64,000 nt of DNA from Eledone cirrhosa (taxonomy: Eukaryota). Below are positions 1-58,572 of the stretch, piece by piece. Both the position numbers and the translations under genes were made by a program. Every line of letters begins with the position of its first letter. Positions within the stretch are counted from its first letter, which is position 1. The stretch is taken from the NCBI GenBank assembly GCA_964016885.1, contig OZ024743.1, forward strand, positions 18,910,001 through 18,974,000, written 5' to 3'. The notes under the pieces were generated by a model. The model was not told the DNA's origin, searched no databases, and saw only the letters and a program-made list of their open reading frames with translations.

Positions 1-860
1 CCTTTCGATGTTGACAGCTAATATTTACCTCCGTTCTATCGTTAATCGGTAGAGGTCCTGATAGAGTTATGTAATATGCTTCGGTAAGACAGAATTCACA
101 AGCTGTTCTTCGTCCATTGAACGGTTGTGCACTAGACAAGATATCCCATGTTAATGAGTGTTCAATGTTGCTTAATTTAAGGTTTTTAATTATCCTAGCT
201 AGAGATGTCGAACATCTGTTGTTAGGGTTTCGGAAGGAAAAGGGGTGCGCGTTATAGCGTACCTTAAAAGGGTTAGAGGTAAACCCGATATATGAGCTGG
301 TCTGGGAAGCAGTTTTAACCATGCACCTATAGACTATGTTGGGTGTCAGGCAATGTCCATTTAGTGGACATGCGTTCGGGTAACGGCAGTTGCAGTTACT
401 CCTGCGGTTAGTGAGAGTAGGGTTGTTTAACCTAAGCGGTTGGTCAGTGCTAGAAGGATAAGATGGGGGGAGGTGTGCTACTAACGTAAGTATTGATGTA
501 GTGGGTTGTGTATTTGTTGGGAGTGGTGGTACCGCGGTGTGGGAGTTATACTGTCTTAGTTTATGATTGTTACTGAATGCGATGTGGCTAGTCAGGTTTG
601 GTGTTGTGGAGAATGAGCTTTCAATGTTAATGTTATTAAAGAGTTTGTAATACCTATGGTTGGGGGTGGGTGGGGGTAGATAGGATAGAGAAGAAGCGTT
701 TAGGGATATTAGTGGTAAGATTAGATGAGAATGAGGGGTTAAGCCAGGTGTTATTTCTGGGCCTATTCCTTCTAGGGGTTTTAGTGGAGTTGGTAGGGGC
801 CTTCATAGGGTTATTATTACCTGTGGATTTGTTATTTGTCATCCCATTTCTCATTCCTAT
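1..860 (-). mobile_element. Penelope-like element ORF remnant (post-RT linker + GIY-YIG endonuclease), Nematis-like (tentative)
   Basis: Minus strand translates RRNRPRNNTWLNPSF (WxNPPF motif) and CNCRYPNACPLNGHCLTPNIVYRC...SYIGFTSNPFKVRYNAHPFSFR...WDILSSAQPFNGRRTACEFCLTE. Collinear with the ORF at 57538-58572; frameshifted. Confidence 0.85.
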
Positions 861-28606: not shown

Positions 28607-28865
28607 CTAGCAGCTAAGTTTAAAGCTATGGAAAGAGTGTCGGTGGTAGTGTTGGCTAATGGAAAAAACATCTGATTTTCTATTTAGGAGGTCTAGTTTA
28701 GAATAGATTATAGTGCGGGTCTCTAGAAGACAGAGGTTACATAAATTATTCGGTGGTTTATACGATGCGGGCCATCTACTACTTCCCATTGAAGTGTATA
28801 TGGTCTATTCCTAGTTTTCAGAACGTATGTAGCTAGATAAAGAAGTGGAGTTGGCTAGATTGCGA
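28607..28865 (-). mobile_element. PLE GIY-YIG C-terminal remnant
   Basis: PASYKPPNNLCNLCLLETRTIIYSKLDLLNRKSDVFSISQH matches the C.LC..E...I......LN...E....C.H end of the 57.5 kb ORF. Confidence 0.7.
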
Positions 28866-29180
28866 TTTTTGTATATTCTTAACGCATTTGCACTCTCTAT
28901 ACGCTTGCCTATGTTCTGCTAGTGTCCTGGTTTTACGAGTAACTTTCTATCTTAATGCCTCCTTATTTATTATACTATTCCCTTGTAATCTCTGTCACAT
29001 GCATTCCTCTATGTGCCTTTTTAATTTTTAATTTTTAATTTTAACTTGTGTACAATTCTCTTGTAATCTATGTCGCATCCATTCGTAAATACGAAACTGT
29101 TGTTGACAAAATTAATATCCATGTATCTCTATGATTGTTCAGTTGAATAGGAGGTTAATTATATGTACAAACATTGCTAG

Positions 29181-42039: not shown

Positions 42040-44115
42040 GTCCCTCATTATCGCTGCCATGTCCTGCGTCTCCAACAGACCTTGTCTGTCCTTAGGGCAT
42101 CAACATACGTTAACCTTGGTCTTCCTTTTCCAGTGTGTCCATGTAGGGGCTCCCACAAAAGAACTGAGTGCAATGTCAACTCTGGATGTCGGTGAGCATG
42201 TCCAGCTAACCTCAGTCTCCTCTGTGTCACTTTTGAGGTGACTTTTGGGAGGCTCCCATACAGCTCTGAGTTTTCCATCCTCAGTGTATACTGATTAATG
42301 TTCAGAGCCATCCTCAGCATTCTCGTGTAGCACCCATCCACCATCTGAGTGAGTTTCTTCTTCAGTGTCCAAGTCTCAGACCTGTACAGCAGCACAGACT
42401 CCACTACAGCAATGAAGAGGCGGATGTTCAGCTCTTTACAAAGGTCCGACTTGCACACCGATCTCAAGCTGTGGCACGCCACCCAGGCTTTGCTCGTCCT
42501 CTCAACCACATCATCTTCCGTATTACCAATCTTTGCTTCCAAATACAGGAAATCCTCAACCAATTCTGGCGGCTCCCGCCTCCATTTGTGATCCACTCTG
42601 GCTTCTCAACATTCTTTACAAGATAGTTTGTTTTAGTCTCATTCATTCTCAGCCCCACACTAATCGACACAGTCTCAACCTCCTGCATCAAGTCCTCTAC
42701 CCCCTTCACTGTATTTGTCACCAACACTATGTCATCGGTAAATTCAGCATCTGATACCTTTTTCGCCTTAACTCTCCTACTGTGAGCCGGTGCTACAGTA
42801 AAGCCAGAGTCCTGGTGTTTCTCCAGTGCAAGGCGCATACAATAGTCCACTATGATTATGAAAAGGTAGGGAGCCAATGTATCTCCCTGGAGCACTCCAG
42901 CCAGTATCTCAAAGAACTCTGTCATCCCATCAGGTGTAATGACTTGGGCTTTGGTGTTAGTGTAGAGCAGTGATATCAGGTCCACTATCCTCTTAGGCAT
43001 TCCATAAGCCTGTAAGATCTTTATCAGGCAGTGACGGTCCACAGAATCAAAGGCCTTCCTAAAGTCAATGAAAACCATGACCGCAGGAAGGCACTTTGCT
43101 CTAGCTCCCTCTAATATCCTCCTCAGCATCAGGATGTGACTGGTGGTTGATCTACCCTCTCTGAAGCCGTTCTGGTTGTCCCTGAGCTTTTCTCCATCTC
43201 AGGCTGAATCCTGTTAAGAATCATCACGTTGAGGGTCTTTGCCACAAGTGACGTCAGTGAGATCCCCCTGTAGTTGTTGGTGTTAGAGATATCTCCCTTC
43301 TTTGGCACCGGGACGATGTTACTGATCCTCACTGATTCGGGGCAACTCCTTTCTCCAGTGCCTTGTTACAGAACCCCAAGATGATATCATTAAAATCACA
43401 CCTCTTCATCACCTCTAATGCCACTCCATCTTCTCCATGAGCCTTGCCCTCCTTGATCTTCTTCTTGGCTCCCTGAAGCTCCTCTCTGGTGAAGGGCTCT
43501 GTCTCAATATCCAGTTCCTCAAACAGCCGCCTGATCTCCCCCGTGCTCTGGGCTGTGGATGGTAGCTCTACTAGTAGGGTCCTAAAATGATCTAGCCATT
43601 TCCTCTTCCCATCCTCGGGCCACGTTCCCTGGATCTGACTCGAACACGTTCTCTTCCTCGCTGTGATCTCGTTGATGATCATCCAGCTCTCCTTACATCC
43701 AGATCTGTCAACCGCTCTCTCGACACTTCTGATCGTCTCTATCAGTGCCTCCTCTCTGGCCTCAGTATAAGCGGTACAGAGTTCTTCCCTCATCACCTCT
43801 ACAGTCTACATCCTCTCCTCTGTAGAATCAGCATAAAATTGGTCCTTGGCAGCTTTCAGGTGTCTCTGGCTGCACGCACTTTTATGTTTGTAGAGCTGAC
43901 GTGCTTACTTTTGTTCTTTTTTTCCTCGGCACCATGGTTTCACTTGCTTCCGCCACTGCATTGATGAAGTGCGCGTACCTCCTCGTCACACTCTCCTCAG
44001 TTCATCCAATCTCTCTCTCCTCTCTCTCTCCACACATAGCACTGAACCAGTTCCTCACTTCCACTGTGAGCCTCTCCTGTAGCTTATCATCTTCTTTGAA
44101 AGCTCCCCAGTCATA
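42040..44115 (-). mobile_element. RTE-clade LINE, 5'-truncated, RT domain with frameshifts
   Basis: VPVPKKGD...NYRGISLTS; FIDFRKAFDSV; GVLQGDTLAPYLF; EFTDDIVL; RRLRLAGHAHRH...GRPRLTYVD. Confidence 0.92.
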
Positions 44116-45996: not shown

Positions 45997-46344
45997 TATA
46001 TATATATATATATATATATAGATATATATATATATATATAGATATATAGATAGATAGATAGATACATAAACATATGTGTAGACCCTTACTTAATAGATGT
46101 AATTAGTCCAACACTTGTGCACATTCACCTAAAAGGTATGTCGTTTAGCTACATACCACATTCTGCCACTGCATCTAATCGTGATTGGTCTTCATGTCAA
46201 CATTATGACCCGCAATACGGAATGTTCAAATAAAAAGGAAAAACAATTAATCTCCAGTTGCATTTTCGATTTCATCTTTTTTCTTTATACTTTCACTCGT
46301 GTAGGACACCTCGGTTATTTTTCATTTTATAAAGAAAACCTCAC

Positions 46345-46434
<90 letters not shown>

Positions 46435-46490
46435 GTATGTATATATCTGTGTGTTTGCTTGTGTGTGTGAGTGTTTATATATATATATAT

Positions 46491-47185: not shown

Positions 47186-47261
<76 letters not shown>

Positions 47262-47267
<6 letters not shown>

Positions 47268-48438
47268 AAAAAGGGATGAAATCGAAAATGCAACTGAAGT
47301 CTTATTTTTTTTTAAAATATATATATTTATTTGGTTCCTTTACCGGTTTCGCAGTTCTTCTGCTTTTCAAAAGGTGAGTTGAGATGGAGGGTCTGTGGTT
47401 TTTCTCACATCTGGTTGGTCTCTAAATGTTACTTGTTTTATATGGAAAATGTGGCTCGAAAACCAGGTTTTTCGAGAAGTAATTTGATTGGTTTGTCAAT
47501 AATTATAATAAATTTCGCGCCAGTTCGCGTTACAATAGTTCTTCAAATAAGAGAGGGGGGGGGTTGTCAATAGGCATTGATGAATTACGGAAACAGAAAC
47601 AAATTCAAGGTACGTCCAATATTCTATCATATATCTCAACACACAACCCAAGAAATGCGGAAGCTTACAACACTATTCACAATAACATCCCACTACTAAA
47701 ACAAAACCCAAAAATGAAAAAAGCCCTTGAAACACACAAAATAATCAAAAGCAAAAGACAACCAAAATCACTGAAAACATTACTCACCAATGCCAAATTA
47801 CCTACCACAAACCCACAACCAAGTATCAAAAAATGTGGTCGCTCTAATTGTGGAACCTGCACTCACCTCATTGAAGGCAACACGTATACATTTAAATCAG
47901 GACAAAATTTTACTGTAAAAAATCACTTCACTTGCTCATCAAAAAATCTACTTTATGCCATTAAATGTAAAGGATGCAATGAAGATTATATAGGACAAAC
48001 TAAACTCACACTCAGAAACAGAATGACAGTTCATCGCCAACAATTACGAGATCAAACCACGAGACAGATACCACTAAGTGCACATCTAGACATTTGCGCA
48101 AGTAATAAGACACCCAAATTCCAAGTCTTCCCATTTTACCTTTGCGCTAACAATACAACAGAACAAATGCGAATAAATAAGGAAAATATGTTTATTCAAA
48201 AATATAGACCAACATTAAATAAGGTTTAATATACATTATGTCAACACCACAATATGACATACACACACACACATAACACCTTCTACTTTAGAAAATAAAA
48301 ACCCGAACTAAATAAACCTTAAACATACGTTTGCACTGGCAATACAACAGCAAACACGAACAAGTCAGGAAAATATGTTCATTCAAAAATATTCCTACTA
48401 AAGGAATAATTTTCCTACACACACACATACACACACAC

Positions 48439-48760: not shown

Positions 48761-49449
48761 AGCACACAAATAAACACATATCTTCAGTCTCAATAGAAAA
48801 TCTGAACTCTGACACCTGAACTCTGACAGCTGGCCATATTCACTGAACCAGAACATTTCTCCCAATCCCTTTTCCCTTGACCACTATCTCTCCATTGTCA
48901 TAACATTCACTATAAAGACTACAGAATAGTTTTCCAAATAAGGGCGCAAAAATGTAATGAAAACTTGTTCACGTGACAGCCAAATTTCATTTATAACCAA
49001 CCAAAAAAGAGCCTTCGTGAGCCTCATTTTTTCAAGTAAAAAGAAATTCAAACACTCATATATGAAAAAACAACCTGTGACAACCCCCCCCCTCTCTTAT
49101 TTGAAGAACTATTGTAACGCGTACTAGCGCGAAATTTATTATAATTATTGACAAACCAATCAAATTACTTCTCGAAAAACCTGGTTTTCGAGCCACTTTT
49201 TCCATAGAAAACAAGTAACATTTAGAGACCAACCAGATGTGAAAAAAACCACAGACCCTCCATTTCAACTCACCTTTTGAAAAGCAGAAGAACTGCGAAA
49301 CCGGTAAAGGAACCAAATAAATATATATATTTAAAAAAAAAAATAAGACTTCAGTTGCATTTTCGATTTCATCCCTTTTTCTTTATACTTCCACTCGTGT
49401 AGGACACCTCGGTTATTTTTCATTTTGTAAAAAAAACCTCACTTTCTAA
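47262..49449 (+). mobile_element. 5'-truncated PLE (GIY-YIG half, Neptune-like, tentative) with an inverted pseudo-LTR piece at the 5' end
   Basis: ORF 47570-48229: STHNPRN, KKCGRSNCGTC, SKNLLYAIKCKGCNEDYIGQT...RNRMTVH...ENMFIQKYRPTLN. 47262-47568 is the reverse complement of about 49079-49388. Confidence 0.9.
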
Positions 49450-49480
49450 TATATATATATATATATATATACATATATCC

Positions 49481-50378
<898 letters not shown>

Positions 50379-50400
50379 TATATATATATATATATATATA

Positions 50401-51533
50401 TTTAATACAATAACAGAGATAGTTTAAAGCTAAATTCTGACTGGTAACCATCTCACTCAACAAACATTAGGTTATATTAAAATATAGACCCAATTTAAGT
50501 GTTCGGGGTGCTAACAATATGTATAATGTGGAGAAACCAGTTGTATTATTTTATGAGATATAATTAAAGTTAAAGTATATCTCTCTTTCCAAACAATTGT
50601 TTCATTATAAGTTTTCTACAAGTTTGGGAGAATGTTTTCAGTTTATGTAGAAGCCTAATATATATTCATGTAAGAATATATTTAGGTGGGCACTTATAAA
50701 TCATCAGTGGAAGCCCATTAAACATTGATATAAGAAAACAATTTCTTACCGCTGTCAAAATCATGTCCGTAAAGTTGGTCTCTCTCACCTCGAATGACCG
50801 CCAAATTTGAAATTCCAGCAGTTTTTGACTGAGGAAGTATCATAGCGACACGAAGCGGGAAGGGGAGACAACCCACGAAATGAGGAAAAAAAAATAATAT
50901 ACACGCGGGTTAATTAGTTTTTTTGAAAACATTATCAATCCAACGTGTTTAAGAACTCAATTGAAAATAAAAAAATAAATATATGCTTGTATAAATTACA
51001 CACGCATATAGATATTTTCTTTGGCTAAATCAGAAGTTGTACCCGAATAAGAACCGCTTCTCATAACCGCAGTAAATGCAGAAATTCATGCTATAAAGGG
51101 CAAATGGGAATATAATTCTCCGGCCGAATTATTAAGAGTAAAATATAAAACACACGCGGGTTAATTAGTTATTTCAAAACCAATATTTATTCCTCGTGTA
51201 AAGAACTCAATTAATAAAAGAAAATAAATACATATATGCATGTAATTATATACGTAGGCATATATATATATTTTCCTAGGCTAAAAAACAGACAAGTTAC
51301 AACCAAAAAAAGCCACAATATTTCACAACAATAATAAATACGGAACGTCAAATTCATAAGGTACCTGGAAATAAACACCTCTGGCCATTCAAGAGTAAAT
51401 ATTTAATACAATAACAGAGATAGTTTAAAGCTAAACTCTGACTGGTAACCATCTCACTCAACAAACATTAGGTTATATTAAAATATAGACCCAATTTAAG
51501 TGTTCGTGGTGCTAACAATATGTATAATGTGGA
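50401..51533 (-). mobile_element. ORF-less ~1001-bp unit with a 132-bp terminal redundancy, carrying a large HHR
   Basis: 50401-50532 is repeated at 51402-51533; internal sub-repeat acacgcgggttaattagtt at about 50901 and 51152; (TA)n on both sides. Confidence 0.75.
50587..50712 (-). ncRNA. Type I HHR with a ~80-nt branched insertion capping helix II
   Basis: ttcca CTGATGA t ttataagt [two hairpins] acttataa t GAAA caattg TT tggaa. Confidence 0.8.
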
Positions 51534-55410: not shown

Positions 55411-56524
55411 CATACATATAAGAGGAAATTAAAAGATGGTTAAAAAAGGTTCCATGTATTTTATTATGCGCATTCCAAAAACAAATATCATCCTGTGGCG
55501 ATATTTGCGTACTCATCAGGTATAATAGGGATACATGATATGCAGCTTAAAAAAAAACACTTGGAGCAAGTTAGTGTCTAATCAACATATATTGATTAGA
55601 CACTAATAAACATATATTGGTTCGACACTACCTTGCTCACTACCTGGATTAGACCCTACCATGCTCACCCCTAGCTCGCGAAGTAAGCAGCCGTCATAAG
55701 GCTTTTGGCGATATGTATCTACAAGTGGGTGTGACTGGGTCGCTGGAGGTGGGGGAGACAGTGTGTGTGTATATATACTATTATGTATGTATGTGGGTGT
55801 GGGGGTGTCTACGCATTGGGACGTACGTGTGTGTATGCATAAATATGTATGTATATATACTATTATGTATGTATGTGGGTGTGGGGGTGTCTGCGCATTG
55901 GGACGTACGTGTGTGTATGCATAAATATGTATGTGTCTGCATGTGTGTGTGTTTATGTGTTTATATTAGTATGTGTGGGTGCTTACTCTGAACTGTGAGC
56001 AGACATGTGAAATACTGAACCTAGCATGACTCCATCGAAATGTGTCGGACGGAAAATGGCTGATGACCCGTGTGGCAGCAGATAATGATCAGAACCTATA
56101 ATGACGTGGAGTAAAAAGAGCCAATGGCATGACAAGAGTGTAAGTAGGGTTTTTTTAGGATGTTTTTGATGATATCACTCCAGTGATAAAATTTGCAACA
56201 CCCATGTCTGAAAGAACACTCATAATTAGAATCAGCCAGATCCATACAAGGGTGATGTCTCGAGCTACCTGCCGGCGAAACAATTGTAACACGCAATGAA
56301 TTAAATCCAGATGCATCACTGTTTTTTCGTTTTCTTTATACTATATATATATATATATATATATTCAACGACTACTACCACCAAACCATCAAGGAGGAGT
56401 GAGAGAGAGAAAGAGGTAAAAAAAAATGTTAACTTTTTTATATACACGTAAATTATGTTCTCTAATACCCTTTTCTAATTATATGAACCTTAATTATATT
56501 ATATACTTTTTATCATATTTCCTA

Positions 56525-57050: not shown

Positions 57051-57501
57051 GGGTATCAAAAAATAAATATGGTATTTATAGGTCTCTACAAGTGGTAGGA
57101 GAGGGTGGGGAGTGGGATGGGTGCAGGTCATTGGTTGATAGAGAAGGGAATTCATTAAAGGCTAATTCTACATAGCTATAGTTAAATTATATTTATTTAT
57201 GTTTTTAGAGTAACAAAGGCAGACAGAAATCTATAAACAAGTTCCGGATGGCATACCATTCCTTGTCAATAAGTTTCTCTTAAGCTAGCAGATGTCTATA
57301 AAATCAGTGGGGGGTCATTCATGCTCGATAGAATTAAAGGAAAGGGAGATTCTTTAAAAGCTAAAGTCATTAAGTTCTGCTAAGTGACAAAGGTCTAGGG
57401 AATTCTGCAGACAGATTCAAAATACTGAGTGCATATCTTACTATTATCTTCGAACTTCTCTTAAACTAATCAACAATATGCCAAATCAACAGACACATTC
57501 A

Positions 57502-57537
<36 letters not shown>

Positions 57538-57539
<2 letters not shown>

Positions 57540-58572
57540 AAGCTCTTTCTTCTCTAATCTAGGATTTAGTATTACTATAGATTCTAATTTGACTAGGGCC
57601 AACTTCTTAGATGTCACTCTCGACCTAGATACTTCCCTCTATTACCCGTACCACAAACCTAACGAGTCCCTTAAATATATTAATGTTAATTCAAACCACC
57701 CCCAAAACATTACTGATAACCTAGTAAAAAGCGTCTCTATTAGAATATCTGGCCTCTCCGCCAACAAAGATATTTTTAATGCATCTGCCTCCTACTACAA
57801 TGACGCCCTAGCCCGTAGCGGATTTAAAGATAAGATAACTTACCTAGAAACCACCGCAAAATTGCAGAGGAGGAATAGACATAGGCAGATTAGCTGGTAC
57901 AACCCTCCCTTCAATAGAGAGGTATCTACTCCGATAGCTAGGATTTTCTTCACTTTACTGAAATTACACTTCCCCATACAACATAGGTACTACACCATCT
58001 TTAATAAGAATACTATAAGACTGTCTTACTCCACCACACCTAACCTAGCTAGGAATATAGCCAACCACAACTCTAAACTAAATACGCCAACCACCTCCGA
58101 AACCAATCCCCGGACTGGGGCTCTATGTAATTGCCTAAATAAGGAAACATGCCCACTAGAAAACAAATGCCTCACAAACGACATCGTATACAAATGCGAT
58201 GTCATCTCGGGCACCGAGGATTGCAAAAAAACTTACATCGGCATGACATCCAACACCTTTAAGACCCGCTGGTATGCCCATACCCACTCCTTCAGAAGAC
58301 CGGATAAATCAAACCAAACAACACTCGCCTCCTACGTTTGGGACCTCAAAAGGAACTCCACCCCCTTCACGCTTAATTGGAAAATACTCCAGAAAGCGCG
58401 CTCTTACGACGGAGGACACAAGGGCTGCGACCTTTGTATTTCAGAGAGTTACGAAATTTTATTCGCCAAGGGCCCGCTACTGAACAAACTCTCTGAACAC
58501 TGCCCGAACTGCATGCACAAGAACTTTGCAACATTCAAACACTTTAAGCCAGTGTTAAAGCCCGATGGCTAA
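57538..58572 (+). CDS. PLE ORF C-terminal half (late RT, thumb, Cys linker, GIY-YIG endonuclease); uninterrupted but 5'-truncated
   Basis: NFLDVTLDL...PYHKPN...SNHP; WYNPPF; [13 protein letters not shown]...VYKC...[16 protein letters not shown]...CDLCISE...LLN...CMH. The ATG at 57478 lies in the inverted repeat and is not the real start. Confidence 0.88.

Follow-up and report, generated by a model that had tools for sequence, protein, structure and literature searches.

A type I hammerhead motif of 126 nt whose helix II opens into a branched domain of two hairpins lies on the minus strand of the 64,000-nucleotide stretch of Eledone cirrhosa DNA analysed here (the window), at positions 50587..50712. 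Comparison of the units places it in a partly tandem non-coding repeat with one type I hammerhead per unit, which probably descends from Hydra-clade Penelope-like elements (PLEs) as a non-autonomous, retrozyme-like form. The branched domain is folded across the subfamilies of the repeat, and many unrelated families of the same genome also have hammerheads with a long helix II. Many copies of the repeat have their 5' end just 3' of the predicted cleavage site, a pile-up that may be the footprint of cleavage in vivo.

Anatomy of the hammerhead and of its host repeat

The motif consists of the following parts.

50587..50712, minus strand: type I hammerhead motif, 126 nt (sequence, folding, copy comparison)
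50708..50712, minus strand: 5' strand of helix I, partner 50587-50591
50700..50707, minus strand: core C3-A9 and U10.1 (sequence; CUGAUGA at 50707-50701)
50692..50699, minus strand: 5' strand of the 8-bp helix II, partner 50605-50612; 97.6% of cells paired
50687..50691, minus strand: junction of 5 conserved nt with complementarity to GGGC in the flank (50713-50716), predicted to act as a brace or as a folding trap
50654..50686, minus strand: hairpin IIa, variable in sequence, fold retained
50614..50652, minus strand: hairpin IIb, with a conserved 7-bp stem, an internal loop and an inner GGA/UCC helix
50603-50601, minus strand: GAA of the core (sequence)
50593..50600, minus strand: 8-nt palindrome of helix III, predicted dimer interface (sequence and copy comparison)
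50591..50592, minus strand: predicted cut, 3' of U17 in the GUU triplet (consensus of hammerheads; pile-up of copy 5' ends at -2..+11)
50713..50732, minus strand: 5' flank with GGGC and TATATC, the latter a possible extension of stem I with 50576-50581

The original prediction, made without naming a strand, described an intact core, an 8-bp helix II, a palindromic helix III and a GUU site, and all of these are present on the minus strand. By sequence comparison the core is complete (C3-U4-G5-A6-N7-G8-A9 and G12-A13-A14), and U17 of the predicted cleavage site is nucleotide 50592. The cleavage triplet (NUH), with its A15.1-U16.1 pair, is GUU in 134 of 138 copies, GUC in 2 and altered in 2, whereas 137 of 138 distinct copies have a U·U mismatch in place of the consensus G-C pair (G10.1-C11.1) at the base of helix II. 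The two-hairpin domain of ~80 nt that had been proposed within helix II was recovered as 79 nt, in which hairpins IIa (50686-50654) and IIb (50652-50614) are joined by 5, 1 and 1 nt into a three-way junction. The minus-strand fold has a z-score of -3.63, with 0 of 200 shuffles equally stable; that of the plus strand has z = -1.65. Pair probabilities in the monomer are 0.83 for helix I, 0.92 for helix II, 0.98 for IIa, 0.96 for IIb and 0.05 for helix III. According to the predicted folds and the copies, three helices surround the core, helix I is open and helix III is formed only in the dimer. The window copy carries a private G-to-A change at 50638, which disrupts the inner 3-bp helix of IIb, kept in 69-72 of 73 copies. 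An Rfam search of the locus returned no hammerhead at the gathering score or at E<=10, in line with the original suggestion that standard descriptors could overlook such a motif. Since Rfam misses the whole ribozyme set and descriptors with a short loop 2 would do the same, counts of animal hammerheads and of retrozyme-like elements are likely too low.

The host repeat and its insertion site are composed as follows.

50395..51395, minus strand: full non-coding unit of 1001 nt, with a fixed 3' end near 50400 against (TA)n
51396..51533, minus strand: second unit, a 5'-truncated partial tandem of 138 nt without the hammerhead, 98% identical to 50395-50532
50889..51285, minus strand: internal duplication with a spacing of ~251 nt, which converts a unit of 0.72-0.74 kb into one of 1.0 kb
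50361..50400, no strand: (TA)n target microsatellite at the 3' end (sequence)

A family-specific pattern gave 1,734 exact matches (862+872) in the 3.0-Gb genome and 0+0 in its reversed control, and the motif is thus not a product of chance. Sequence identity between the subfamilies and the unit in the window is 70-98%. A constant 3' end, which abuts a TA run 197 nt beyond the predicted cut, was seen in 30 of 30 loci, together with variable 5' ends; this polarity identifies the ribozyme strand as the sense strand. At least two ribozymes were present in 28 of 190 locus-strands, spaced by 719-743 or 995-1009 nt in 27 of the 28. A sense hammerhead close to the 3' end, a partial tandem and 5' truncation together make up a PLE-like arrangement.

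No ORF was found within the unit, and none of the loci examined, including the 190 locus-strands, joins the unit to an ORF of an autonomous partner. A single locus-strand of the 190 has a PLE ORF upstream, which is not of the Hydra type and is separated from the unit by ~565 unrelated nt. The assignment to the Hydra clade draws on the long-armed families found behind Hydra-type ORFs (see below) and on the U·U mismatches in the published Hydra table; the link is indirect, because no autonomous element with a matching pLTR was found. Hydra ORFs near loci L139 and L149 were rejected as partners, as they lie at least 1.7 kb away. A scan of metagenomes yielded 3 matches, none of them with helices I and II or a PLE ORF, and these were taken as chance.

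The surroundings of the insertion hold several other mobile-element remains. One of them, the 3' remnant of a PLE ORF that encodes a GIY-YIG domain (47483-48229, plus strand; Pfam E 5e-7), belongs to a separate element on the other strand and was rejected as a partner as well. Hydra-type ORF fragments were detected by tblastn at 57445-58557 (plus strand), 5-667 (minus) and 28619-28882 (minus), with reverse transcriptase (RT) and endonuclease unrecognised by Pfam. A reverse transcriptase fragment at 42467-43198 (minus strand; RVT_1, E 1.5e-22) is unlinked to the hammerhead repeat. A MITE-like element with inverted repeats (49636-49931 and 50083-50378) directly adjoins the insertion site and has relatives in the window at 46239-46446, 47261-47569 and 48985-49450. 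At ~50477-50500 the plus strand reads 'KYRPNL', resembling the end of a PLE ORF, but this candidate was dropped: it runs opposite to the ribozyme and to the direction of truncation, and no tblastn hit falls there.

Conservation and covariation of the fold

The homologues expected of a Penelope-type hammerhead, keeping the core and the helix pairings, were found among the genomic matches. Across 73 distinct copies, the 39 named pairs were paired in 93% of cells, compared with 38-46% in slid controls; the letters of the core and of helix II were partly fixed by the selection pattern used to collect the copies. The 12 core columns were all invariant between seven subfamily majorities, the core letters being also in that pattern. 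Helix I, predicted to be perfect, has five pairs in the window copy but only 4 bp in most subfamilies: its inner four pairs are kept in 72-73 of the 73 copies and the outer one in 20.

Helix III gives the clearest signal of selection on structure. Two variants of its palindrome occur, in 100 versus 34 of 138 copies, and a double change separates subfamilies (AU in 54, GC in 18 and GU in 1 of the 73 copies); the computed energy of the palindrome as an 8-bp duplex is -6.4 or -10.0 kcal/mol. That the palindrome has been altered on both sides in one subfamily agrees with the expectation for dimer cleavage (PMC4209133) and supports cleavage as dimers.

The two hairpins of the insert differ in how they are maintained. 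In IIa, 89% of cells are paired, one pair is AU in 36, GU in 19 and GC in 11 copies, and four more vary by wobble; the distal pairs, near the loop, are broken in 16-25 of the 73 copies, and 18 of 29 columns are invariant. For the subfamily majorities, IIa is more stable than random mutants with an equal number of changes (median fraction 0.047, from 36 non-independent comparisons, with 7 of the 73 copies left out). IIb is 98% paired with almost no covariation: between the seven subfamilies, 12 of 14 columns of its stem and 6 of 6 of its inner helix are invariant, as are 5 of 5 columns of the junction at 50687..50691. Outside the ribozyme, 58% of the unit is invariant (four units compared). The near invariability of IIb, the inner helix and the junction thus represents conservation, not covariation. 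Pairs with double changes within the insert numbered 5 versus 3.8 after shuffling, and 127 of 500 shuffles reached 5. Hence, of the covariation sought within the insert, a conserved fold and the single AU/GU/GC pair of IIa held up, whereas the overall excess of double changes did not: the insert is folded across subfamilies with one clean compensatory pair, and covariation within it is thin. In older subfamilies, IIa and IIb have the same few terminal letters, which points to an origin by hairpin duplication and might allow a rod as an alternative fold, an option lost in the subfamily of the window copy.

The flanks offer further pairings. Three G-C pairs between the GGGC flank and the GCCC of the junction are possible in 128-132 of 138 copies, without covariation, and both halves of the stem I extension (the TATATC flank and 50576-50581) are present in 112 of 138. 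With the flanks added, the fold of lowest energy has UGGGC paired to GCCCA and leaves the core buried.

Long-armed hammerheads in the genome and the closest known systems

In a scan that covered spacers of 14-75 and 85-146 nt, matches to a generic pattern of core, spacer and palindrome numbered 246 for spacers of 14-44 nt, 368 for 45-75 nt, 2,004 for 85-115 nt and 98 for 116-146 nt, with 0-1 in each control. Helix II regions of 20, 58, 72-82, 90 and 93-97 nt, unrelated in sequence, are spread over several families. Several of the long-armed families are preceded by Hydra-type ORFs at a distance of 385-540 nt (908 in one case), and a 760-aa ORF, one such example, contains the RWK, DKT and CxCX5C motifs; the Hydra clade is defined by these motifs and by the lack of CCHH (Craig et al. 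2021, PMC8557442). Forms with a 20-nt helix II likewise follow Hydra-type ORFs. An AGU/UAG loop is found in 14 of 17 rod-type inserts of other families versus 0 of 117 inserts of the branched family.

Some of these loci deserve separate description. In L080, L099, L124, L240 and L056, AGU/UAG forms a 3x3 internal loop, which is found repeatedly, in several families, where the helix II insert is rod-shaped. A Hydra-type element at L088:3250-5529 (minus strand), L033 and L035 combines the 760-aa open frame with a rod-like helix II of 90 nt; its copies end ~50 and ~165 nt past the cut, resembling the two RT starts of the Poseidon element PAc of Anolis. Within the window, ~56150-56300 (plus strand) holds the 3' half of another hammerhead, with an identical palindrome and no intact CUGAUGA upstream, which is probably a decayed copy of another long-armed family.

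Hammerheads in PLEs, their cleavage as dimers, U·U bases and PLE-derived retrozymes are already known. The closest match is to the Hydra-clade hammerheads, which, in the table of Craig et al. (PMC8557442), are also of type I, with a stem II that starts from U·U in 14 of 26 rows, a short near-palindromic helix III, a position near the 3' end and (TA)n targets. By contrast, loop 2 is of 3-10 nt on a stem of 3-7 bp in those 26 Hydra rows, the longest in the table (35 nt, PLE-X1_sMoe) being flagged as deviating, whereas the window motif has 79 branched nt in a repeat without an RT-endonuclease ORF. Minimal PLE hammerheads, described as active as dimers (Cervera and de la Pena 2014, PMC4209133), share the helix II of 7-8 bp, the helix I of 4-5 bp and the palindromic helix III, but have a conserved G10.1-C11.1 pair, and the available text describes no loop 2 domain. 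Among natural variants, U·U at the base of stem II (U10.1-U11.1) is a tolerated form, and base-paired braces (pseudoknots) between stems I and II occur (Perreault et al. 2011, PMC3088659); unlike here, no branched helix II domain is described in the accessible part of that paper.

Non-LTR retrozymes, too, are head-to-tail arrays of non-coding units, each with a single type I hammerhead; they are derived from PLE pLTRs and include axolotl Amex2, with U·U (Cervera and de la Pena 2020, PMC7229834; Li et al. 2026, bioRxiv 10.64898/2026.07.22.740005). They differ in having units of ~220-400 nt and loop 1-loop 2 contacts, whereas the repeat studied here has units of 0.72-1.0 kb, mostly one or two of them, with PLE-like 5' truncation. 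PAc (Frangieh et al. 2024, PMC11167929) shares a fixed RT start downstream of the ribozyme, AT-rich targets and a mostly uncut template, but is autonomous, of another clade, and has no branched domain described. Our literature search listed no report of a long or branched helix II in PLE hammerheads, although papers beyond its reach may describe long stem II variants; the main text of a repeat annotation of a large invertebrate genome leaves hammerheads unmentioned.

5' ends of the copies and the possible role of the branched domain

Copies for the analysis of 5' ends were picked only by sequence 3' of the cut, giving 117 distinct insertions after 6 duplicates had been dropped; 9 positions were corrected by hand, and the width of the counting interval was set once the first 30 loci had been seen. 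Among the 113 copies at risk, 22 end at -2..+11, where 2.4 were expected from the rate at -500..-3. Nine of the 22 lie at +11, which is TA-rich, so that junctions are ambiguous there and later insertions could land; the 13 ends at -2..+10 compare with 2.2 expected (Poisson p 7e-7). Five first-site ends fall at -2..+2, the adjacent upstream interval -16..-3 has a single end, and in the set that allows measurement +12..+70 has 4 ends in 2,134 nt, the background rate. At the second cut site, 4 of the 12 copies that reach the next unit's site end there. The first site is read through by 91 of 113 copies. The densest other 14-nt windows have 6.8-6.9 ends per 1000 nt at risk versus 16 at the cut, indicating that hot spots exist elsewhere, and a further cluster of 5' ends lies near -204..-189. 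The autonomous family B has 0 of 40 ends at -2..+2, ends beyond +2 being invisible there, and this comparison has low power, since only ~2 ends (a hand estimate) were expected at the rate of the branched family.

The account that we consider slightly more likely than not is that a non-coding tandem repeat, likely a non-autonomous parasite of Hydra-clade PLEs, carries a ribozyme predicted to cleave slowly as a dimer through its palindrome. The branch would probably fold by itself, close helix II and gate folding, and would not serve as a docking site for the RT. A transcript of several units would be bound in trans by a Hydra-type RT-endonuclease, which would nick (TA)n and start cDNA ~197 nt 3' of the ribozyme, priming inside the RNA as in PAc. 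Joined by the palindrome, two ribozymes would cleave a minor share of the templates, on which cDNA would run off at the cut; most templates (91 of 113) would be uncut or re-joined at the site. The monomer probability of helix III is low, but the 8-bp palindrome duplex was counted for the dimer model. Less firmly, the junction GCCCA may pair with the flanking UGGGC, which could either trap the core while the long insert is transcribed or brace stems I and II in the active fold; cleavage might then wait for a partner ribozyme or the protein of the element. We regard as doubtful the bolder form of this account, namely a natural hammerhead subtype whose branched helix II is a built-in switch, the pairing of junction and 5' flank keeping the core inactive until a partner ribozyme or a retroelement protein refolds it, and in which the 5'-end step at GUU is a genomic record of PLE hammerheads cutting a minority of templates in vivo.

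Three other explanations were weighed, each of which we consider improbable. The ribozyme could be little active or inactive in vivo, with the pile-up due to TA microhomology and to an RT that stalls where it meets the folded domain on its 3' side, the explanation of the three that fares best. Many ends indeed lie at +9..+11, where the predicted extension of stem I starts, another cluster of ends sits near -204..-189, family B has no pile-up (at low power), and U·U together with a weak helix III would lower activity. Against this explanation stand five first-site ends at -2..+2 with only one in the next 14 nt upstream, and a core and palindrome maintained across subfamilies that are ~25% diverged. 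For PAc, whose hammerhead needed the element's protein to cut in vitro, cleavage was dispensable in the in vitro study, and no Anolis RNA-seq reads began or ended at the cut site (PMC11167929).

A somewhat poorer case can be made for the branch as the binding site of the mobilising RT-endonuclease, kept because a parasite must retain what the protein grips; the original prediction had proposed such a recognition module, a proposal so far unsupported. The invariance of the IIb stem, the inner GGA/UCC and the junction (12/14, 6/6, 5/5) exceeds that outside the ribozyme, the PAc ribozyme is assisted by protein, and rod-type inserts have the AGU/UAG loop in common. That loop, however, is missing from all 117 inserts of the branched family, which has no motif common with other long inserts, and Hydra-type ORFs also precede the 20-nt forms of helix II. 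Copies that end at the cut imply templates without the upstream insert, and PAc needed no RNA 5' of +20: RNA 5'-truncated to +20 of the ORF, the start of which coincides with that of stem II, was still used (PMC11167929). Given its position 5' of the cut, its differences between families and its absence from the 20-nt forms, the branch is likelier to serve in folding or gating than in RT docking, and a regulatory or folding function of the insert seems plausible.

We give a similarly low probability to the idea that the branch is a passenger which the ribozyme tolerates, perhaps arisen by duplication of a hairpin, and that its fold persists only because helix II has to be closed: unrelated inserts of 20 to 93-97 nt across families, the alike terminal letters of IIa and IIb in older subfamilies and the drift of the IIa sequence (18/29 columns invariant) agree with it, but shortened versions are few among the matches listed, compared with 1,734 full-length ones, and the unpaired junction letters and the inner helix are invariant.

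The role of hammerheads in PLEs has been called unclear by Craig et al. (PMC8557442). More than 1,700 copies, natural variants of the palindrome and the 5'-end step make this role testable, with genome data and at the bench. If the 5'-end step is a record of cleavage, ribozyme activity could be read from genome assemblies alone. A segment at 50795-50821 (minus strand), which lies upstream of the cut by ~205-230 nt and adjoins the second cluster of 5' ends, is near-invariant between subfamilies and may be a structured or a promoter element.
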